Positions 28,711 to 51,486 of a DNA stretch of 64,000 bases are shown in pieces (position 1 is the first letter of the stretch; each line of letters opens with the position of its first letter). The position numbers and the translations under genes were made by a program. The stretch is taken from NCBI GenBank assembly GCA_019058365.1, contig JAHPZE010000001.1, positions 96,001 to 160,000 on the forward strand. Reading direction: 5' to 3'. This DNA is from Promethearchaeota archaeon. Its GTDB lineage: Archaea; Asgardarchaeota; Lokiarchaeia; Sigyniarchaeales; SOKP01. Under the pieces are notes generated by a model. It worked only from the letters and a program-made list of their open reading frames with translations. It had not been told where the DNA came from and searched no databases.

Positions 28711-29346
28711 TCAAAATTTAATAATATCTAAATCTTCTAACTTTTTTAGTATTTCATTTATTTCTGTCCTTTTTTTATTTAAATTTCTTGAAATTTTCAA
28801 GGGAGAATCTTTTCCAGTGCATTGTAATGCAACTTGAAAGTCAAAATCAGCAATCATTCCCATGGATAGAACTTTTTCTAATACACTTTTAGCAACTATT
28901 AAATTTGGAAAAACTTCAGCTATCTTTCCGCCAATTGTAAGATTTTCTATATCCGCAATTAATGTTTGAAATCTACTTTTATCTGTTGTTGCCCTAAAAT
29001 TTTTAAGATCAGATTGGTGCTTTTTCCAAAAACGATTGGCTATTTTATGGATAATTTCCTCAATTTTGTCAGTATTATCATCAGCATCTGAAATTGAGCA
29101 AAATAAAATCCTTGATAATGGGTGATAGTAAATGAAAATGGTTGAATCTTCTGATTGTAATATTCTATCCATTTCATTTACTCTTCTCCCTTTTACCATA
29201 GCTTTTTGAATTATATCAATGGTTATATTAATTGCTTTAAAAAAACCAGTTATTATATCATCTTGAATTTTCTTTAATTCTTTAAATGTTGATTCTAAAA
29301 GGGATATCCCATTATCCCCATCAATTAGATAAATCTTATAAATCAA
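28711..29346 (-). CDS. Longin-like domain plus C-terminal winged-helix protein
   Basis: IYLIDGDNGISLLE...IITGFFKAI longin-like start; C-terminal SPLKISRNL..KRTEINEILKKLEDLDII is wHTH-like. Start is a non-ATG codon (TTG). Confidence 0.65.
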   Translation of the reverse strand: MIYKIYLIDGDNGISLLESTFKELKKIQDDIITGFFKAINITIDIIQKAMVKGRRVNEMDRILQSEDSTIFIYYHPLSRILFCSISDADDNTDKIEEIIHKIANRFWKKHQSDLKNFRATTDKSRFQTLIADIENLTIGGKIAEVFPNLIVAKSVLEKVLSMGMIADFDFQVALQCTGKDSPLKISRNLNKKRTEINEILKKLEDLDIIKF

Positions 29347-29491: not shown

Positions 29492-30784
29492 ATGAAAACT
29501 AAATATACATTCGTATTTTTTTATATGCTGATTTTTCCTTTAAATAATTCATTGGGATTATCTTTTATAACACATTCTACCTCAGCTTTGGCACATCCTC
29601 AGCTATCAACTCCAAATTATGGTGTTTCAAATTTTAATATTTCCCAAAGTGTACAATATGAAGTAGAAATTAATTATACTTTTACTCACACCAAGCTTGA
29701 ATTTCAAACTTACAATTTCAAAGTAGCTAGATTGGATGATCGTCAACCAAATTCAACATTAACACCTTATTGCCCTCCTTATCAGGAAGTCAAGGATTTT
29801 GAAAATTCTATCAATATTACTGGATTTGGAGTTATTGAAGAAGGTTATGTGGATAAATTCAACAATACTTATGATTTATTTAATTCGACGTTATTTTATT
29901 CTCAAACAATAACACTAAACCAACAATATAATATTACTCTCAATGAAATCTATTTTAATGAAATTAATGATGAGGATATTGGAATTTATAATCCAGGTGA
30001 TAATATACATGCATTATATAATGTAACTGAAGAATATTGTGAGTGTAATAATCCAACTTTAATAGCGCTATCTAATAATATTGTAGGTATGGAAAATAAC
30101 ACTGTTGAAAAAGCAAGGAAAATTTTCAATTGGATCGTATCTAATATTGATTATCAGGTGCAAGATGAAGAAATTGGGGCTCTTGAAGCATATAATCAGA
30201 AAAGAGGAGATTGTTCAGATATTTCGGATTTGATGATTACTCTTTTACGCATTCAAAACATTCCAGCAAGAAAGGTAACTGGATTTGTTATTTCTAATAA
30301 TCCTGCATATCGTCCTACTGTTGGTGATAAATATATTTTTGATCTTAATTATAATGGATTAACTCAGACGGCATCATCTACAAATGAAATTTTAGGACAC
30401 GTATGGATGGAGTATTTTATACCTGATATAGGATGGATAGCATGTGATCCTACATGGGGACAAGGATATTTTAATCGAATAGATTTTCTTAGGTTTAGTT
30501 TCAATGTGGGTGCATGGTTTTTCTTACCTGGAGCAACACCTCCTTACAATTATATTTCTGAATTTCCTATTAATCCATCTCCTGTATGCAGCGACCATTC
30601 AGCTTATAATTGGCAATATTCAATCGAAATAACTGTTTTGGAAACTAATCTTAATCCACTGTCTGATTTTCCGATTTTTGCTACTGTAGTTATGATAGTA
30701 GGATTTTGTGCTGTAATCTCATTGATGTTCCTTTTACGAAGTAGAAGGCATAAAAAGCAACTTGAACAATACGCTCAATATTAA
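29492..30784 (+). CDS. Secreted, C-terminally membrane-anchored transglutaminase-like protein
   Basis: Signal peptide; Cys-His-Asp triad in GDCSD, HVWMEYF and DPTWG; C-terminal TM followed by RSRRHKK. Confidence 0.88.
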   Translation: MKTKYTFVFFYMLIFPLNNSLGLSFITHSTSALAHPQLSTPNYGVSNFNISQSVQYEVEINYTFTHTKLEFQTYNFKVARLDDRQPNSTLTPYCPPYQEVKDFENSINITGFGVIEEGYVDKFNNTYDLFNSTLFYSQTITLNQQYNITLNEIYFNEINDEDIGIYNPGDNIHALYNVTEEYCECNNPTLIALSNNIVGMENNTVEKARKIFNWIVSNIDYQVQDEEIGALEAYNQKRGDCSDISDLMITLLRIQNIPARKVTGFVISNNPAYRPTVGDKYIFDLNYNGLTQTASSTNEILGHVWMEYFIPDIGWIACDPTWGQGYFNRIDFLRFSFNVGAWFFLPGATPPYNYISEFPINPSPVCSDHSAYNWQYSIEITVLETNLNPLSDFPIFATVVMIVGFCAVISLMFLLRSRRHKKQLEQYAQY

Positions 30785-30800: not shown

Positions 30801-32273
30801 TTAGATATATGTATGAATTAAGTCAACAAGATTTTTTGAAAAATCTGGCAAGTTTTTTTCAATTTTTTCAATTTCAGAAGACTTTTCTAAAAATAGAAGT
30901 AGATACAAATTATATTTCTCGACTGTTATTTTTTTGAAGATTACTTTTTTAGATGTATCAGTAATACCAGATGATACAATAAAATCCTGTTCTAATAATT
31001 TATATTCCTTAAAATTTTTATAAAGGGATTGAAAATGAGGTGCCGAGATTTCAAATACTCTTCCAGAAATTTCTGTTTTGGAGAAACTGGATAAGATTAT
31101 TCCATTTTCATTCAATAATAAAATAGCATCTGAATTTGTTTTTTTAGCAAATTTTTTTAGTTGATTTCTGAATAGTTCACGATTTGGACTTAATTGTGAT
31201 AAACCAAAAGAATATGCTGTAATCAGGCTCCAATGATCAAAAATACTAGTTTGGAAAATTTTAATAAAAAATCTCTCAGAATTCTCCTTAATCCCATCAG
31301 CAATAATTTCTAAGCTTTTAAAGATATCTTCAGAACCTTTTAAGTCAGGATCGAATTTGTTTATGCAAATGACGATTGGAGGAAATTCCTCTAATTCTAC
31401 TAAAGAGTTTAAAAGAGTTCTAAACAATTCAAGAGCCTCATTTATTCTATCTACATCTTGAATATCTATGAAGAAAAACATTAAATCAATATTATATAGA
31501 TAAATTTTACTTTGCTCTAGGAATTTTTCTCGATATTTTTTTTGACCCCCTAAATCCCATACTGATATCAGTGAATTTTGTTCTTCGAAAATATTTTCTT
31601 CAGTTCTCTCAACACCTTTAGTTGGCAAAGCCTTGATGATTTCAGAGTATTTTCTTCTAATGCCATGCACAAAACTAGTCTTTCCCGCCTTATCTAATCC
31701 CGTAAGTAAAATTTTTATTTGTCTTTTTGTTGAAAAGGGATCTTTTAGTTCCATAGCGAACTCGAAAAGCTCTTCTCTTAGATCTTCCATAATGTTTTCT
31801 CTTTCATTATGTTCTTTATTGATTTGAATTAAGTTTGCAGTTTTATCTATGATGATTCTCAAATATTTCATATTCTCATAAAAAAAAACTCTATCATTTT
31901 CATTTATCAAAACAGTAATAGTAGCAGCTAAAGCTTTACCACGAGCTTTTGCATCAGGAATGAGAAAAAAATAAGTTAGACCATTTAGTTTTAGATCAGG
32001 GAAAGGTAATATTCCAAAGTAATTAACACCCTCAGTAGTTTCTCCGTTTTGATATGTACTATCCCCCATAAGGAGAGAGATAGTTTTCATAGCAATTGAA
32101 AGACCTGCACTTTCATCCATATCCTTAGGCCAGTAAATTTTAGGCGTAGGACCATTCTCATCAAAAAGACTTAATACAATTGCTTTTATTATATTAGCTT
32201 TAAGATCAGACTTTTCTCCTTCAGTTGGTTTTTCTCTCTTTGATTTGGCTTCTGTTTTTGTCAAAAAATCCAC
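30801..32273 (-). CDS. uDENN/longin-like domain + Rag/Arf-like small GTPase + roadblock-like domain
   Basis: N-terminal LSLFDENGP..., FFLIPDAKARG; G1 GLDKAGKTS, G2 PTKG, G3 WDLGGQ, G4 NKFD, G5 TSIFD; C-terminal DAILLLNENGIILS. Confidence 0.85.
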   Translation of the reverse strand: MDFLTKTEAKSKREKPTEGEKSDLKANIIKAIVLSLFDENGPTPKIYWPKDMDESAGLSIAMKTISLLMGDSTYQNGETTEGVNYFGILPFPDLKLNGLTYFFLIPDAKARGKALAATITVLINENDRVFFYENMKYLRIIIDKTANLIQINKEHNERENIMEDLREELFEFAMELKDPFSTKRQIKILLTGLDKAGKTSFVHGIRRKYSEIIKALPTKGVERTEENIFEEQNSLISVWDLGGQKKYREKFLEQSKIYLYNIDLMFFFIDIQDVDRINEALELFRTLLNSLVELEEFPPIVICINKFDPDLKGSEDIFKSLEIIADGIKENSERFFIKIFQTSIFDHWSLITAYSFGLSQLSPNRELFRNQLKKFAKKTNSDAILLLNENGIILSSFSKTEISGRVFEISAPHFQSLYKNFKEYKLLEQDFIVSSGITDTSKKVIFKKITVEKYNLYLLLFLEKSSEIEKIEKNLPDFSKNLVDLIHTYI

Positions 32274-32424: not shown

Positions 32425-34194
32425 TTAAGAATAAAACTTTATACATGATAGGTTTGAATTTTTACAGAATGTTTCAATTAATTCTCTAGGTGTGAGATTA
32501 ATTTTTTTTAAATTTATTAATTCAACAGCACCATTATGAATAAATAGATGGAGATCTCCTTGAACTTTTAACATATTTAAAAAATCACCCTCAATATCAT
32601 TTCTATAATGAATGGAGTTAGTATACATATTTTTTTCTGAAAACCCTTTAACTTTCAATGGAAAGTGTTTCAAATCTAGTTTAGTAAATCTATGAATTGC
32701 TCTTCTAGAAGGATTTTCACTTAATATGTATTTTTTATTATCCCTATTGGATAATTCTGAACATATAATATTTATCTCATTTAGAATTTTCTTGCTAAGC
32801 TTGATTGCGTCTGAATGCTCATGAAGTTCATAATTTGTTAAATATTTAATTGATTCATTCAATCCAACTACACTTATTGATAAACTTTGTTCCTCAAGCT
32901 GAAACAAAGCTTCGCCGTTAATTGTGCTACTACAAATAGGTAAATGATTTGAATTCATCCTTTTTTTTATTATACTAAATTTCTTCAATAAAATACTCGA
33001 GCATAAATTTATTTTTGAAGTTAATAGTTCTAAAAATTCATCCTCATTCCTGCTAATATATGCATAACGAGGTAAGTTTAAGCTAATATTTTGAAGCATA
33101 CCATAATTAAATTGGCCAGTTTGTGATATTTTCTTAAGAAATCTATTTTTATATTCATCTAAACAGAAGTTCATAAAATAAGATGAGGTTATTGTTGCAG
33201 ATTCCTCCCAAAAACTCGGAATTATATCAACCATTTCCTCCAATAATTTATTATCCACTATCAATTGATGTGAAGGACTTAAAATAGAATTTTTACTATA
33301 TATTTCTTTTAAAATAAGGATAATGGATTTAAGTAATTTTTGAGTTCCTTCCCAATAATTTCCATAAATATTTTCAATTTTTCCTCCAGGAAGTATAGCG
33401 GGAACTTGAGCTAAAGCTTCAAAAATAGAGAATGATGAAGATATTGATAATTCAGAAACATTTCGTCCAATAATAAGCGGTAATTGATTAATATCATAGA
33501 ATAATTCTCTAAGATTTTCCATTATTGAAGCTTCTGGTAAATTATACGCATATGGTGCTAAAAAAGTAGTTATAAAATTCAAACCTTGATTACCATAAAA
33601 TTCAGTCTGTGTCATTATTAACCATTTCGATAGATGATTCAAAGCACCTCTAAGATCATTTGCTGGTTTTTGTTTAGTATTTGGTAAACCATTTTTTAAA
33701 ATAAATCGAAAATCCCAGAATTGACTAAATGGTCTTGAATCAAAGTAATTTAGTCCATTAATATGAATATCACCATATAAATGTGCTTTAGATTCTTCAC
33801 TATCTAATATTCTTAAATGCGTATATTCTTCAGCAATCTTATCAGCTGCCCAATGATGTATTTTTTCAGGATTCATCTGCTCATTTTGTCTATCACTTGG
33901 CCCTTTTTCTAGAATTTCTTCATAATCCATCAAGGGTATTCCAATTCGAGTATATAATTTACGTTCATTTTCAAAATGTTGTTCAGAAAGTATTGAACAG
34001 ACTATTTCTCTTATATGTGGGCCAGAAAGAAATTTAATTCCTGAGCTAATAATTCTTCGAACAACTAATTCAGTAATATGCTTTGCGTTTGTCTCACTCA
34101 TTTCAGTTTCTTTTAGAATACTCTCGAAAATCTTAGATGGATCAAATTCAGCAATATTTCCCTCAGTTCTAAAAACTTTTGGTAACAACTCCAT
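32425..34194 (-). CDS. ATP-cone plus class III ribonucleotide reductase (NrdD)-like protein, degenerate and C-terminally truncated
   Basis: ATP-cone (VFRTEG.IAEFDPSKI..SI..ET), AHLYGDIHI, QNISLNLPR.A, SISVVGLNE, YTNSIH. No finger-loop GCR, C-terminal CxxC pair or RxxGY glycyl-radical motif. Confidence 0.8.
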   Translation of the reverse strand: MELLPKVFRTEGNIAEFDPSKIFESILKETEMSETNAKHITELVVRRIISSGIKFLSGPHIREIVCSILSEQHFENERKLYTRIGIPLMDYEEILEKGPSDRQNEQMNPEKIHHWAADKIAEEYTHLRILDSEESKAHLYGDIHINGLNYFDSRPFSQFWDFRFILKNGLPNTKQKPANDLRGALNHLSKWLIMTQTEFYGNQGLNFITTFLAPYAYNLPEASIMENLRELFYDINQLPLIIGRNVSELSISSSFSIFEALAQVPAILPGGKIENIYGNYWEGTQKLLKSIILILKEIYSKNSILSPSHQLIVDNKLLEEMVDIIPSFWEESATITSSYFMNFCLDEYKNRFLKKISQTGQFNYGMLQNISLNLPRYAYISRNEDEFLELLTSKINLCSSILLKKFSIIKKRMNSNHLPICSSTINGEALFQLEEQSLSISVVGLNESIKYLTNYELHEHSDAIKLSKKILNEINIICSELSNRDNKKYILSENPSRRAIHRFTKLDLKHFPLKVKGFSEKNMYTNSIHYRNDIEGDFLNMLKVQGDLHLFIHNGAVELINLKKINLTPRELIETFCKNSNLSCIKFYS

Positions 34195-35266: not shown

Positions 35267-36337
35267 TTATTTTATTAATCCTAAATAATCCTTTAATTGC
35301 TTTTTTACTATGCTAATTGCAAAAGCTATTATTCCACTTTTAACTTTTGGATGAGAAAACAATATTAAAAGCATATCTTTAACGCTAGGATTATTTCGAT
35401 CAATTGGAGCTAAATCCAATATACCTTCAGTTCCCCTAACTGAAATTGATTTTAATAAACCAGCATCTAATCCCTCTACTATATCAGTTCCTATCATTGA
35501 AAGATTCATACCAACTGTTGCAAAAAGAGAATCAGAAATTCTACTGGATATTGCCGATGCCAATATAGTCCCATCCGTTTTTATTATAGCTGATGCTTCT
35601 ATATTTAAATCCAATTTTAATAATTGTTTTAAAATTTCATTCATACTAGAAGGGGGTATTTTTTCCTCATGATCTTTTTTATCAAGATGTTTCTCCTTAG
35701 GAGTTCCTAATTTTTTTACTGAAATTTTTTTCGAAAGAAATCCTAATACCTCAGTCATATCTTTTTCTAATCGTTTTTGTTTTAAAACAGCTGTATCACT
35801 TTCAGTAGATTCTACAGGGATAGGAGATAATGGAACAGAGGTTTTCTTATCCTTTTTTTCCAAAACGGAATTTTTAAGCTCTAGAAAAGCATCTGAAATT
35901 GCATCTTCAGAACGAGTCGGTGGAGATGATGGAGATATAATCTCCCTGTGAGAATCTTGAATAAAACCTTTAAATGGTTGTGGAGTAATTTCTTGTAAAC
36001 CTTTTGATTCACTTTGTTCTAAGGTAGAACCATTTTCTCTTAAGGAACTACTTTCTAATTCGTTATTAGATGACGAAGGAATTTCTTGCAACTTCATTTG
36101 ATTCTCTAATATCTCAGGTTCTTTAGGAATTTCATGTAAATCTAATTTTTCTTTTTTCTTCTCAGTTTCAATTGGTGTTTTTACAGGTTTTTTTTTTTCT
36201 TTTTTCTTTCCTTTCTCAGTTTTTTGATCCGTGGGTCTAGGATGCTTTGTAGGAACGGGTAATAAAGCGCCACACATTCTACAAACGCGATTGATATTTT
36301 CATTATTGGTAGTACCACAATTCTGACATATAATCAA
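35267..36337 (-). CDS. Zinc ribbon + disordered linker + roadblock/LC7 domain protein
   Basis: N-terminal CQNC...CRMCG; P/S/E/K-rich linker; C-terminal MNEILKQL...IEASAIIKTDGTILASA roadblock pattern. Confidence 0.8.
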   Translation of the reverse strand: MIICQNCGTTNNENINRVCRMCGALLPVPTKHPRPTDQKTEKGKKKEKKKPVKTPIETEKKKEKLDLHEIPKEPEILENQMKLQEIPSSSNNELESSSLRENGSTLEQSESKGLQEITPQPFKGFIQDSHREIISPSSPPTRSEDAISDAFLELKNSVLEKKDKKTSVPLSPIPVESTESDTAVLKQKRLEKDMTEVLGFLSKKISVKKLGTPKEKHLDKKDHEEKIPPSSMNEILKQLLKLDLNIEASAIIKTDGTILASAISSRISDSLFATVGMNLSMIGTDIVEGLDAGLLKSISVRGTEGILDLAPIDRNNPSVKDMLLILFSHPKVKSGIIAFAISIVKKQLKDYLGLIK

Positions 36338-36588: not shown

Positions 36589-37557
36589 TTACCTATATAA
36601 TATTTCTTTAAGTAAATTTGCGAAAGACTCGAGATCTTCTTTATGGAAAACCGGATCTTCTTTTAGGAGTATTAAATAGTATGGATCTGAATCTTTCTTT
36701 AGTGTGATTTGCTTAAATATAAAATTTTTACCAAATCTTTGAACTATCATTCTACTTTCATATCTATCTTCTGCTACACCAGTATACTGGAAGCTATCAT
36801 TGAGTGTGAGAAAATATGGCGTTGAGGCGGTGAGTAGATGCTTGGTTTCATCATCTTTATAATATGATCCGATTATAAGAGAGTTATCATCAATTATCAC
36901 AACTCCTTCTGAGTCAACTTTTTTAGCAAATTCTAAAATAGTTTTTTCGATTAATTCTGATTTTGGATATAAGCTTAAAAGGATTTCAGACATAGCAGTA
37001 ATAATAGAGCCAAAATCATAAATAGAAGTTTCATAATAATATAATTCCTTATATTCAGTGGCTCTTAATTTATCTTTTAAATCAATTATTAAAGATTCCA
37101 TTTCATTTTGTGCACTTCTTCGTAATGCGGGATCATATTTATGAAGAAACACATATATTGGGGGTTTAATTTCTAATTTTTTAAACTGCTCTAATACATC
37201 TTTAAAATAACTTATAGCTTCAGGTATTCGAGGTTTATTTTGGATGTCAATTACATAAATAGCAATTTCAGTTCCTTCGAAATATTTACCAGGATTCTTC
37301 AAATAGGCAATTCTATAACTCAATTGGCCCCCTAGGTCCCATTCTGATATTTCTTTACCAAGAAAATCAAAAATTCTTTTCTGAGCACCTCGAGTTGGAG
37401 AAAGGATTGCAATTTTTGAAAATTCTCTTTGAAGGGCAAGAATTATTGAAGTTTTACCTGCCTCGTCTAATCCTGTAAATAATATCTTAGAAATTTCAGG
37501 TTTGGGGGGTTCTTCCTTTTTTAAGTATAAAATTGATTGTTTAAGATTCTTTTCCAA
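36589..37557 (-). CDS. Rag/Gtr-like small GTPase with C-terminal roadblock-like domain
   Basis: G1 GLDEAGKTS, PTRG, WDLGGQ, Rag-type G4 HKYD and G5 TSIYD; C-terminal EGVVIIDDNSLIIGS. Start placed at TTG 37557 after AGGTGA (ORF track starts at 37569). Confidence 0.85.
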   Translation of the reverse strand: MEKNLKQSILYLKKEEPPKPEISKILFTGLDEAGKTSIILALQREFSKIAILSPTRGAQKRIFDFLGKEISEWDLGGQLSYRIAYLKNPGKYFEGTEIAIYVIDIQNKPRIPEAISYFKDVLEQFKKLEIKPPIYVFLHKYDPALRRSAQNEMESLIIDLKDKLRATEYKELYYYETSIYDFGSIITAMSEILLSLYPKSELIEKTILEFAKKVDSEGVVIIDDNSLIIGSYYKDDETKHLLTASTPYFLTLNDSFQYTGVAEDRYESRMIVQRFGKNFIFKQITLKKDSDPYYLILLKEDPVFHKEDLESFANLLKEILYR

Positions 37558-37725
37558 AGTGTATTTCACCTTTGAACTTATAAAAGTATTATAAATATAA
37601 ATATATTCTTTTTGTAAAATATTATATTAATTCATACTATTTTAGATTTTGTATTGTTTAATGTTGTTTTAAAAATATTTTGATCTTTACAATTTCTATT
37701 ATAAATAAAAGAGCGAATAAAATGA

Positions 37726-38247: not shown

Positions 38248-38394
38248 ATTATTTATACTCCATTTTCCTATTTTTAATAAATTTCAAATATTTTTAAAAA
38301 TTGAATTATGATTAAGCAAAAAAATAAAAATAAAATACTATTCTAGTCGATATTAATCCTATCTAATAAAACTAATTAAAAGTTGTAAATCCAA

Positions 38395-39123
38395 ATGAAT
38401 GAATTAAATAATAAAGAAGAAGCTGAGAATAATTCAGAAAACTCAGAAGAAATAGAAGAAAAAACTGAAAATACTACGAAATCAAAATTAAAAGATAAAT
38501 TAGGTGGTACCAAAGATAGCTTAGGTAAATTTGCCTCAAAACTAAAAGATAGAGTTGGAGAAAGTAAAGAAAAAGTCAAATTTAAGATGGAACAACGAAA
38601 AGAAAAGAAAGAACTTGAGAGGATAGAAAAAGAAGCTAGAGAGAAAGTAGAAAGAGAAATTAAAGAAAAAGAGGCTAAAGAAAAAGCAGAAAGAGAAGCT
38701 AAAGAGAGAGCAGCTAGAGAAAAAGCAGAAAAAGTAGCTAGAGAAAAAGCAGAAAGAGAAGCTAGAGAAAAAGCAGAAAGAGAGGCTAAAGAAAGAGCAG
38801 AAAGAGTAGTTAAAGAAAAAGAAGAAAGAGACGCTAAAGAGAGAGCAGAAAGAGAAGCTAAAGAAAAAGTAGAAAGAGAAGCTAAAGAAAAAGCAAAAAG
38901 AGAAGCTAAAGAAAGAGCAGAAAAAGAAGCTATAAAGAAAGCAGAAAGAGAAGCGAGAGAAAAAGAAGCAAAAGAAGTGGCGGAAAAATTGGCTAGATTT
39001 AAAGCAGAAAAAGAAGCTGAAAGAAAAGAGAAAAGATCAACAAAAATCATTTGTCAAACTTGTGGAGCAGTAAATGATGCAACTCGTAAATTTTGTAGCT
39101 CATGTCATTCAACGCTTATTTAA
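38395..39123 (+). CDS. E/K/R/A-rich single-alpha-helix protein with C-terminal zinc ribbon
   Basis: About 130 aa of AKEKAERE-type repeats; C-terminal CQTCG...CSSCH. Confidence 0.8.
   Translation: MNELNNKEEAENNSENSEEIEEKTENTTKSKLKDKLGGTKDSLGKFASKLKDRVGESKEKVKFKMEQRKEKKELERIEKEAREKVEREIKEKEAKEKAEREAKERAAREKAEKVAREKAEREAREKAEREAKERAERVVKEKEERDAKERAEREAKEKVEREAKEKAKREAKERAEKEAIKKAEREAREKEAKEVAEKLARFKAEKEAERKEKRSTKIICQTCGAVNDATRKFCSSCHSTLI
38626..39030 (+). repeat. Imperfect 24-nt coding tandem repeat (consensus approx. GCTAAAGAAAAAGCAGAAAGAGAA = AKEKAERE)
   Basis: More than a dozen degenerate units visible; the plus strand is strongly purine-biased here. Confidence 0.85.
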
Positions 39124-40196: not shown

Positions 40197-41699
40197 ATGG
40201 AAGAATTACTTAAATCTTCAATTATAAAGGGATTTGTTCTAAGTGTCTTTGGAGAACTTGGTCCAACTCCAATTTATTGCTTCCCTAATTATGTTACTGA
40301 AAAGGAGTTCAAGGAACTTTCCAAAGAATCAAAAGATCAAGGCCATCTTATTTTAACATATCGTGATATTACTCAAATTTCCATAAAAAATTTAAGCCTT
40401 TTTATTAGTGATAAGATTGTTATGGAAGAGAAGGATCTCACAAAAATTCAATATTTTGCTATTTTACCATATCCTGATTTTAACACAACTTCTCTTACCT
40501 ATTTTCATTTTATTAGGAGAGATTCTGAAGATCATTCAATCCCAACCGCATTTTCGATACTAGCAGAAGAAAAAAGCCGAAGCTTTTTATATAATAATAT
40601 AAATCGAATTAAACCAGTAGTTACTGAATTTTTCAAAATTTTTGATAAAAAGATGCTTGATTCTTACCCTCCACGTGAAAATGTTGAAAAATTTTTCCAA
40701 GATCTTTTGACAGAATTAATAGAAATTGTGAAAAACCCTTCAACTCCAATTACTACTCATAGGAAGATGAAGATTTTATTTGCAGGTTTGGATAATTCAG
40801 GCAAAACTAGTTTTTTACTTTCTGTAGATCGTAAATATAGTAAACTAATCGGTCTTAAACCCACAGCAGGAGCGAGTATAAAATCTATTGAAGCATTAGG
40901 GGCTACAATTTTTCTTTGGGATTTAGGAGGACAGAGAAAATTCCGAGAAAAATATATTAATAAAGCTGAAATCTATCTATATGAGGCTGATCTTTTATTT
41001 TACTTTATTGATATTAAAGATAGAGCTAGATTTGATGAAAGTATTGAATATCTTCAAAATCTTAAGAGTGTGATTGAAGAATTCAATCAAAATACACCAA
41101 TAGTATACATATTATCAAAAGGAGATGCTGATATCTTAAATACAGGAGAAATTAAAGAAAATATCGAATTTATAAAAACAAAGTTAAGAGAAAATGATCA
41201 AGATGACTCACTAGAAACATATACTACAAGTATCTTCCAAATCTTTACAATTCTACGAGCCTTTTCTTCAGGTATCTCAAAATTAAGTCCAAATAGAGAT
41301 CTGATTAATCATAATCTTAAAAAATTCTCTTTAATGACAGAATCATATTTAACGCTACTTTTAAGTGTTGACGGTTTAGTCCTTGCCAATTTCTATGATA
41401 AACAAACTATGGGTTTAACGAAAATTCCTAAATCAGAAGTAATGAATGTATTTGAAATCTCTGCACCTCAATTTACGGTTTTATTTAAAATATTTTCAAA
41501 ATTTAAAGCATTACAACAAAATGAAGCTTTATTTAGAGTTTCAAATACAGTAATTTTTATTAAAAGAATCCAAATTGAAGAAAACGATATGTTTCTCTTA
41601 TTTTTAGTAGATAATGAAAATAAAAAAGATAAAATTGATGAAGAATTGCCAGGATTCTTAAAATACACCCAAGATTTACTTTTACGATATATTGCTTAA
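40197..41699 (+). CDS. uDENN/longin-like domain + Rag/Arf-like small GTPase + roadblock-like domain (paralogue of 30801..32273)
   Basis: LSVFGELGPTP, YFAILPYPD; G1 GLDNSGKTS, PTAG, WDLGGQ, atypical G4 SKGD, TSIFQ; SKLSPNRDL and FEISAPQF shared with the paralogue. Confidence 0.85.
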   Translation: MEELLKSSIIKGFVLSVFGELGPTPIYCFPNYVTEKEFKELSKESKDQGHLILTYRDITQISIKNLSLFISDKIVMEEKDLTKIQYFAILPYPDFNTTSLTYFHFIRRDSEDHSIPTAFSILAEEKSRSFLYNNINRIKPVVTEFFKIFDKKMLDSYPPRENVEKFFQDLLTELIEIVKNPSTPITTHRKMKILFAGLDNSGKTSFLLSVDRKYSKLIGLKPTAGASIKSIEALGATIFLWDLGGQRKFREKYINKAEIYLYEADLLFYFIDIKDRARFDESIEYLQNLKSVIEEFNQNTPIVYILSKGDADILNTGEIKENIEFIKTKLRENDQDDSLETYTTSIFQIFTILRAFSSGISKLSPNRDLINHNLKKFSLMTESYLTLLLSVDGLVLANFYDKQTMGLTKIPKSEVMNVFEISAPQFTVLFKIFSKFKALQQNEALFRVSNTVIFIKRIQIEENDMFLLFLVDNENKKDKIDEELPGFLKYTQDLLLRYIA

Positions 41700-50442: not shown

Positions 50443-51486
50443 ATGAAACGTCAAATAATTCAAGGAATAGTATACATAGAAATGAATGATGAATTGGGAC
50501 CTAATCCTGTCGCATGGCTTCCTAATACATTCACACAAATGGATTTAATTAATATAAGCATTAAAGTATTAACAATCCTATCGGGTGAAGACGGTCTTAT
50601 ACCTGAATCTTTAGTAATCCTCCCCTTTCCTTCAAGGAATTTAAAGGGAATTGTTAAATACATTAAATGGGCTGATTCATTAAGACGAGGAGGTATTGGT
50701 CAATCGGCTCTTGTATTGTTGTTTAAAGAAATAGATGATGTAATTTTTTATAAATATATTAATGATCTATCAATTCCTTTTAATAACCTCACACCAGAAA
50801 TAATAAATTTAGAAAATTCAAAAGCATCTAGAGAAGATTTCATAAGATTACTTGAACACCTTGAATTTAATATATCCGCTCTTTTAGAAGAATTAAAAAT
50901 TCAAGAAATGGCTCAACAAGAGAGTAAAGCATTCCCTGATCAACAACTTAAAGACCGAAATTTAATAGATTATCAATTTAAAATTATAATTTGTGGAGAT
51001 CCGCACGTTGGTAAAACTTCATTGATATTGAGATATACCAATGATGCATTTAGAAGAAATTACGTACCAACTTTAGGTGTTATGGTTTCAGATAAGATCT
51101 TTAAGATTGATGATTTTATCATCCAATTAACGTTATGGGACATCGGAGGTCAGCAAAAATTTCAAACAATGAGAAGACAATTTTATCGAGGTTCTGACGC
51201 TGTATTCTTGGTTTTTGATTTAACAAGAATTGACTCCTATAATAATATTCCTAAATGGTTTTCAGACGTAGCTGAACAGCTTAAAAATCGTTCTGAAGAA
51301 TTAATGGGATTTATTATTGGAAATAAAAAAGATTTAACTAACCAAATACAGGTAACTTCTGAAATGGCAAATCAAATTGCAGATCAATTAGGAATAGGAT
51401 TCATAGAAACATCAGCACTACAAGGAGAAAATGTAGATTATGCTTTCTCTACAATCGCTAACTTATTACTTAAATCCCGTTTATAA
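50443..51486 (+). CDS. uDENN/longin-like domain fused to a Rab-like small GTPase
   Basis: N-terminal MNDELGPNP, ILPFP, WADSLRRGG; G1 GDPHVGKTS, G2 YVPTLG, G3 WDIGGQ, QFYRGS, G4 NKKD, G5 ETSAL. Confidence 0.87.
   Translation: MKRQIIQGIVYIEMNDELGPNPVAWLPNTFTQMDLINISIKVLTILSGEDGLIPESLVILPFPSRNLKGIVKYIKWADSLRRGGIGQSALVLLFKEIDDVIFYKYINDLSIPFNNLTPEIINLENSKASREDFIRLLEHLEFNISALLEELKIQEMAQQESKAFPDQQLKDRNLIDYQFKIIICGDPHVGKTSLILRYTNDAFRRNYVPTLGVMVSDKIFKIDDFIIQLTLWDIGGQQKFQTMRRQFYRGSDAVFLVFDLTRIDSYNNIPKWFSDVAEQLKNRSEELMGFIIGNKKDLTNQIQVTSEMANQIADQLGIGFIETSALQGENVDYAFSTIANLLLKSRL

Follow-up and report, generated by a model that had tools for sequence, protein, structure and literature searches.

A FLCN/SMCR8-type longin domain with a candidate arginine finger joined to a Rag-like GTPase in a Lokiarchaeial genome

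The LGR-A gene and its domains

We analyzed a stretch of 64,000 nucleotides (the window) from a Promethearchaeota archaeon of the class Lokiarchaeia (assembly GCA_019058365.1, contig JAHPZE010000001.1, positions 96,001 to 160,000). It is AT-rich, with 26-35% G+C, and all coordinates given here refer to it unless another locus is named. At 30801..32273 on the minus strand lies a gene with a GTG start and a stop codon at 30801..30803, which encodes a longin-GTPase-roadblock protein of 490 amino acids (aa), here called LGR-A. On the same strand the gene is divided into a charged N-terminal tail (aa 1-25, 32199..32273), a longin domain of the FLCN/SMCR8 type (aa 26-177, 31743..32198), an Arf/Rag-like G domain (aa 184-360, 31194..31724) and a C-terminal roadblock domain (aa 361-490, 30804..31193). 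The tail is predicted to be disordered, with predicted local distance difference test (pLDDT) values of 31-70 in both structural models. The homologues (484, ~487 aa) come from metagenome-assembled genomes of Promethearchaeota/Lokiarchaeia, and the nearest ones are mostly annotated as 'ADP-ribosylation factor-like protein'.

The N-terminal domain was modelled by AlphaFold2 (AF2) from 32 domain relatives, with a mean pLDDT of 88.4 and a predicted template modelling score (pTM) of 0.81. The model shows strands at aa 29-38 and 41-48, a helix at 54-68, strands at 85-91, 96-106 and 114-124 and helices at 125-151 and 155-175. This order of two strands, one helix, three strands and two helices is that of the longin fold. 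The model was compared with known structures by Foldseek and twice by VIA-align, in one case without Foldseek pre-selection, and the ranking is the same either way. The top match is the Lokiarchaeal longin 8yqg (Z 18.4, root-mean-square deviation (rmsd) 2.4 Å over 143 residues). The ranks below it are taken by the longins of GTPase-activating proteins (GAPs) and by DENN proteins (Z 10.3-13.5). These are folliculin (FLCN; Z 13.5 for 8dhb_J and 12.9, rmsd 2.6 Å over 133-135 residues), the FNIP homologue Lst4 (13.1-13.3), chains of C9orf72-SMCR8 (11.2-12.6), NPRL2/3 (~11.4-12.1), FNIP2 (11.0) and DENND1 (10.3-10.7), while the remaining longins (TRAPP, VAMP7, Ykt6, Sec22) reach Z ≤ 9.4. Judged from the model, the N-terminal domain is structurally nearer to the GAP longins than to other longins. 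An earlier note on this DNA, made from the sequence alone, had proposed a longin-type domain here, and the AF2 model and both kinds of structure search confirm the fold. The ESM Atlas yielded only leads below 0.9, all of them uncharacterised Promethearchaeota clusters, one of which has NPR2 on 19% of its members.

Between the first two strands, at the β1-β2 turn, the model places G41-P42 (GGT CCT, 32148..32153, minus strand), the conserved 'GP motif'. The loop D107-K113 (31935..31955, minus strand) joins strands 96-106 and 114-124 as a β4-β5 hairpin in a part of the model where 10-residue blocks average a pLDDT of about 94. It carries R111 (CGT, 31941..31943, minus strand), the candidate GAP arginine finger. 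The strings on which the earlier note was built, LSLFDENGP (aa 34-42), TYFFLIPDAKARG (aa 100-112) and TITVLINENDRVFF (aa 118-131), stand at the places given in the translation, as does the R111 codon (31943..31941).

The human counterpart was taken from the FLCN chain 6ulg_L (579 aa, native numbering). Its residues 139-212 contain D160-S-L-A-R164-G165 (…KDSLARG…), and F10-C-E-L-H-G15-P16 is found in residues 1-28, within HFCELHGPRTLF. The FLCN strings given in the earlier note, including Arg164, are therefore correct. Of its loop pattern F-x-[DE]-x-x-G-P, the GP is kept, but the β1-β2 loop of LGR-A (F37-D-E-N-G41-P42) is one residue shorter than that of FLCN. In an hhalign alignment of the domain profile (A1) with FLCN 139-212, R111 lies opposite R164. 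Together with the β4-β5 position in the model, this places R111 on the equivalent β-hairpin loop, as had been claimed. Among the PDB sequences, profile A1 retrieved (E ≤ 10) only 8yqg and coiled-coil noise, and no FLCN, SMCR8 or NPRL2, so the link to FLCN rests on Pfam, hhalign and the fold.

Folliculin (PF11704) is the sole non-GTPase Pfam family matched by LGR-A (E 0.001-0.002), and it is also matched by 7 of the 32 domain relatives (best E 1.3e-6). Standalone relatives were sought by a scan of 121 genomes from the phylum. Those found in other Asgard families show FDExxGP and DEKARGG and are matched by the domain profile at E 1e-9 to 1e-14. On PF11704 they score 23.3-31.9 bits, at or over its gathering cut-off, with 27.7-31.9 bits for those over it. 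Their arginine and R111 both fall at about position 61 of the PF11704 profile, as obtained by offset counting from the match ranges under a gap-free assumption. The repeated Folliculin matches and the fold searches agree that the likeness beyond the ARG triplet is not due to chance. The N-terminal domain of LGR-A is genuinely homologous to the catalytic longins of FLCN, SMCR8 and NPRL2, the longin GAPs of eukaryotes.

Both motifs are strictly conserved close to LGR-A. F37, G41, P42, A110, R111 and G112 are invariant in all 120 of the 120 nearest clusters at 90% identity, which bears out the expected conservation of R111 among homologues. A wider family of 122 representatives at 50% identity was collected with the N-terminal domain. 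Here, G41 is kept in 96 of 97 aligned residues, P42 in 92 of 97 and R111 in 83 of 111.

For the remainder of the protein, aa 187-400 match the Pfam family Gtr1_RagA (PF04670) with 89 bits (cut-off 22, E 4e-25, profile positions 1-215 of 232), and the Arf family is matched at E 2e-19. By sequence, the G domain alone scores comparably or better with Arf than with Rag. The motifs G1 (GLDKAGKT, 31677..31700), G3 (DLGGQ, 31542..31556), G4 (NKFD) and G5 (TSIF) can be read, and G1-G5 are intact including DxxGQ; the P-loop motif GLDKAGKT is without arginine. The full-length model has a pLDDT of 75 and a pTM of 0.62, and its secondary structure delimits the roadblock domain. In Foldseek it aligns over 300-320 columns, spanning G domain and roadblock, with LokiRagO (8yl2), RagA/RagC and Gtr1/Gtr2. 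The label 'Rag-like GTPase-roadblock' given in the earlier note is thus accurate by both Gtr1_RagA and Foldseek. Longin and G domain are separated by only about 8 residues (aa 177-185), a linker of highly conserved sequence.

Comparison with known longin proteins

Longin-GTPase-roadblock (L-G-R) Rag-like GTPases have been published for strain MK-D1 ('Ca. Prometheoarchaeum syntrophicum') by Tran et al. (2024, PMC10933270), who inferred a functional longin-GTPase interaction from such fusions. LGR-A shares with them the order of the three domains, the Rag/Arf-like G domain and the Lokiarchaeial host. In contrast to our assignment, the part of that paper available to us does not class the longin as FLCN/SMCR8-type and mentions neither the arginine finger and GP motif nor a pair of genes with and without the arginine. 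For Asgard archaea, a preprint (Liu et al., 2020) described longins resembling those of FLCN and NPRL2 as well as longin fusions of the Rag family. Both the GP motif and an arginine finger in Asgard 'FLCN/SMCR8-type' longins were reported in a survey of longin GAPs (Traffic 2025, PMC12290439). It places the GP motif at the β1-β2 turn in FLCN, NPRL2, SMCR8 and C9orf72, finds none in the longins of TRAPP, adaptin and DENND, and leaves as a question whether the client GTPases of the Asgard longins are ArfR or Rag/Gtr. LGR-A has the same motifs at the same structural places. It differs by the covalent link of its longin to a Rag-like GTPase; paralogous longins are linked to Rab-like and Arf-like ones.

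The human FLCN-FNIP2 complex on RagC (8dhb, 6nzd, 6ulg; PMC9473554) shares with LGR-A the longin fold, the GP turn and the arginine in the aligned loop, and the Rag-type client of FLCN, with its roadblock domain, resembles the Rag-like part of LGR-A itself. In human cells, the arginine of this kind of longin switches Rag GTPases off. FLCN differs by its C-terminal DENN domain and by being encoded separately from its Rag client, on which it acts in trans while paired with FNIP in a heterodimer; the sequence identity is about 15%. No DENN domain follows the longin of LGR-A. LGR-A is not an FLCN orthologue, because its longin precedes a G domain and a roadblock domain and a C-terminal DENN domain is missing. 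C9orf72-SMCR8, a GAP for Arf, and NPRL2-NPRL3 of GATOR1, a GAP for RagA/B, are pairs of paralogous longins which share the GP motif but have the finger on one member only. Unlike LGR-A, they work in large multi-subunit complexes and are not fused to a GTPase.

The closest solved structure, 8yqg, is the longin of a Lokiarchaeota roadblock-longin protein. It resembles LGR-A by its GPEP turn and is found by the domain profile at E 2.3e-16. It differs by the missing arginine at the aligned position (…LKEPEK…), by the roadblock lying N-terminal to the longin and by a chain without GTPase. According to the PDB titles, LokiRagO is a homotetramer and LokiRagM a monomer. A literature search for papers on 8yqg, 8yl2, 8zla, 9m28, LokiRagM or Asgard Rag-like crystal structures from 2025 onward found none.

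Paralogues and gene neighbourhood

The source genome encodes four copies of the LGR-A-type longin, three of them in the window. LGR-B (40197..41699, plus strand) is a paralogue of 500 aa with the same order of longin, Rag-like GTPase and roadblock and is a candidate non-catalytic partner or substrate. It has kept the GP motif but is without arginine at the finger position (…IRRDSEDHS…), and its G4 motif is 'SKGD' instead of NKxD. In this respect, C9orf72, which keeps the GP motif without the arginine, resembles LGR-B relative to LGR-A. The third copy (50443..51486, plus strand) encodes a longin-Rab/Ras-like GTPase of 347 aa with NDELGP and DSLRRG (Pfam Ras, E 1.6e-45), the latter string being very close to the DSLARG of FLCN. 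The fourth copy lies on another contig of the same genome (L004:514-3414, plus strand), where the open reading frame (ORF) of more than 967 aa runs off the locus. It is composed of an Arf-like GTPase (E 5e-34), a longin with 'HWDENLG' and an 'ESIRGG' finger, two PAS domains and one GAF domain. The W-D-x3-G spacing of its longin equals that of C9orf72 (W33-D34…G38 in the numbering of PMC12290439).

Between LGR-A and LGR-B lies a gene for a Rag-like GTPase-roadblock protein without longin (36589..37569, minus strand; Pfam Gtr1_RagA), followed by that of a Zn-ribbon protein. Its product matches PDB 8yl2, the 'homo-tetrameric RagA-like GTPase LokiRagO', over the full length at E 1.3e-90 and is the orthologue of LokiRagO. 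It is an alternative candidate for a substrate in trans.

LGR-A was found in all 15 of the 15 genomes of its own family and in both genomes of the sister family; beyond these two families, it was not detected with this query in the sample of 121 genomes of the phylum. A frame of the LGR-B type occurs in 15 of the 17 genomes with LGR-A. In 10 genomes both genes are on one contig, 6-12 kb apart on opposite strands. An LGR-A orthologue of 50% identity in another assembly has an arginine-less LGR of 479 aa at a distance of 6 kb, with different genes in between. In a maximum-likelihood tree, a single well-supported branch (98/92) parts the LGR proteins with the arginine from those without it, as would be expected from one ancient duplication in which the finger changed once.

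Several domain architectures occur in the wider family. Longin, Rag-like GTPase and roadblock are combined both with and without the arginine. A longin with a Rab-like GTPase (~335-360 aa, mostly with R-G) accounts for about 30 of the representatives at 50% identity. Further forms consist of an N-terminal extension and a longin (~280-315 aa, with ARGG) or of a short standalone longin. The forms without GTPase (roadblock-longin, standalone) retain the ARG motif, and it is also retained in two clusters (P0132, P0133) despite a degenerate G3 motif and switch I. No clean pattern links the presence of the finger to the intactness of a protein's own G3 motif; these two are the only arginine-containing clusters with degenerate G domains. 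A giant protein of 4405 aa in the representative library (P0237) has six separate matches to the longin domain (E 3.6e-4 overall). Another Asgard genome, a single contig of 3.58 Mb, contains three tandem genes for proteins of 372, 375 and 166 aa (L012:4091-7396, plus strand). Each opens with an FLCN-type longin (FDExxGP, DEKARG) that scores 23.3-28.3 bits on PF11704 against the cut-off of 23.3. No GTPase gene is adjacent. In the proteins of 372 and 375 aa, the C-terminal half has no Pfam match.

Around LGR-A, the gene directly upstream (32425..34194, minus strand) encodes an NrdD-like protein (Pfam NRDD, E 8e-58) with a weak ATP-cone match. The NRDD match reaches profile position 495 of 562, with little protein left beyond it, so that the glycyl-radical region at the C-terminus may be absent. 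Convergent to LGR-A lies a gene for a transglutaminase-core protein with hydrophobic ends (29492..30784, plus strand; Pfam E 1.5e-22), after which follows a gene for a 211-aa protein with a weak C-terminal winged helix-turn-helix of the TrmB type (28711..29346, minus strand). LGR-A orthologues of 80% (L005) and 49% (L008) identity have the transglutaminase-core gene in the same position, followed by a gene for 211 and 238 aa, respectively.

Just downstream of the LokiRagO orthologue and co-oriented with it, 35267..36337 (minus strand) encodes a protein of 356 aa with an N-terminal CxxC…CxxC zinc ribbon, which gives weak Pfam matches. It continues with a long Lys/Glu/Ser-rich linker and a roadblock-like C-terminal part and matches no Pfam family at E ≤ 0.01. 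A protein of 242 aa rich in E/K/A/R repeats (…EREAKEKAER…) with a CxxC…CxxC zinc ribbon at its end is encoded at 38395..39123 (plus strand); its probable antisense shadow is a Ser/Leu/Phe-rich ORF of 224 aa at 38376..39050 on the opposite strand. An MtrH-like gene abuts LGR-B and likewise abuts the LGR gene of a distant relative (L007).

Possible mechanism and meaning

The earlier note had proposed an FLCN-type GAP domain tethered to its cognate Rag-like GTPase. Fold, motifs and fusion are as proposed, whereas GAP catalysis and the pairing with a cognate substrate are what we infer from them. As an arginine finger, R111 would reach into the pocket where a Rag-like G domain holds its nucleotide, and would there accelerate GTP hydrolysis jointly with the switch-II glutamine of this recipient domain. 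The finger would most likely work in trans inside a dimer mediated by the roadblock domains, for which the arginine-less LGR-B would be the prime partner. The pair would then consist of one catalytic and one non-catalytic longin and of two G domains, one of them fingered at a time. In this way, two polypeptides would rebuild the lopsided arrangement which eukaryotes assemble from four (FLCN:FNIP on RagA:RagC).

Action in trans is favoured because the eukaryotic homologues act in trans and because finger-bearing longins exist without a GTPase. It is further favoured by the two clusters that keep ARG beside a degenerate G3 motif and switch I, and by the conserved arginine-less twin with an intact G domain that is at hand. 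Moreover, Rag-type roadblock domains are dimerisation modules, which argues in the same direction. The single branch between LGR proteins with and without the arginine and the frequent presence of an arginine-less LGR near LGR-A count in its favour as well. On balance, we give a trans-acting finger in a roadblock-mediated dimer, with LGR-B as its prime partner, an even chance of being correct.

Several points weigh against this reading. LGR-A itself scores 18.5-19.3 bits on PF11704, under the gathering cut-off of 23.3 bits. The hhalign match to FLCN is weak by itself (E 0.004, probability 8%, 27 columns), although the pairing of R111 that it gives agrees with Pfam, fold and conservation. Since 8yqg is without arginine at the aligned position, the family includes non-catalytic members. 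The pairing of LGR-A with LGR-B is circumstantial; a homodimer, or a complex with the LokiRagO orthologue at a distance of 4 kb, is just as conceivable. The co-occurrence in 15 of 17 genomes and the synteny come from related genomes and are not independent evidence; common descent by itself predicts synteny inside one family. Finally, the short and well-conserved linker fits a fixed intramolecular arrangement and might favour action in cis.

The longin could instead be non-catalytic and serve as a dimerisation surface, a scaffold or a platform of the guanine nucleotide exchange factor (GEF) type, as in TRAPP, Mon1-Ccz1 and DENND1, with R111 being structural or binding something other than the nucleotide. 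A platform or GEF function is the role of most longins, the GEF DENND1 is among the structural matches at Z 10.3-10.7, and 8yqg, the nearest solved relative, is a dimer without the arginine. In the inactive lysosomal FLCN complex, even the finger of FLCN is kept away from RagC (PMC9473554). However, the GP motif and the β4-β5 arginine are specific to GAP longins and missing from those of TRAPP, adaptin and DENND (PMC12290439), the GAP longins are the top structural matches, and folding alone can hardly explain an invariant A-R-G in an exposed loop. We therefore consider a non-catalytic longin rather unlikely.

A finger built in for use in cis would let R111 reach the pocket of its own G domain. 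The protein would then be a self-activating or conformationally gated GTPase that needs no partner for catalysis, similar to G-alpha or MglA with their intrinsic arginine. The covalent connection through the conserved linker of ~8 residues, the catalytic motifs, all of which the own G domain retains, and the moderate pTM of the full-length model (0.62) are in line with it. Nevertheless, ARG persists in clusters with degenerate G domains, the finger-bearing longin is also found without a fused GTPase, all eukaryotic homologues work in trans, and with a finger used purely in cis it would be unclear what the conserved arginine-less twin is for. Action in cis thus appears rather unlikely.

A bolder form of the trans reading may be added, which we regard as quite improbable. 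LGR-A and LGR-B would be an obligate heterodimer, in which a single finger serves two G domains. The pair would then resemble the ancestral state that, by gene fission, gave rise to the Rag heterodimers of eukaryotes and to their paired longin GAPs (FLCN:FNIP, NPRL2:NPRL3, SMCR8:C9orf72). If true, switch and regulator began as one protein.

That the D-x-x-A-R-G string is a chance resemblance in an unrelated α/β domain, as might be suspected from the short and weak pairwise profile match and from the profile search that missed FLCN in the PDB, is effectively refuted by the family-wide repeated Folliculin matches, the fold searches by two methods and the strict conservation of both motifs, which agree with each other.

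The longin-GTPase-roadblock architecture and the Asgard longins with GP motif and arginine have each been published already, separately. Among the papers that our literature search covered, none links both halves or describes the pair with and without the arginine. For the question which closes the 2025 survey, the fusion in LGR-A names a candidate client, a Rag-like GTPase, and the same genome contains parallel longin fusions to Rab-like and Arf-like GTPases. LGR-A is a small soluble prokaryotic protein and suited to probing the mechanism of longin GAPs, as a directly testable archaeal forerunner of eukaryotic regulators of nutrient signalling. The conserved twin genes with and without the arginine suggest that the asymmetry of FLCN:FNIP, NPRL2:NPRL3 and SMCR8:C9orf72 is paralleled in archaea and possibly even originated there. 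Should this be confirmed, Rag-type regulation would have its origin before lysosomes and TOR.

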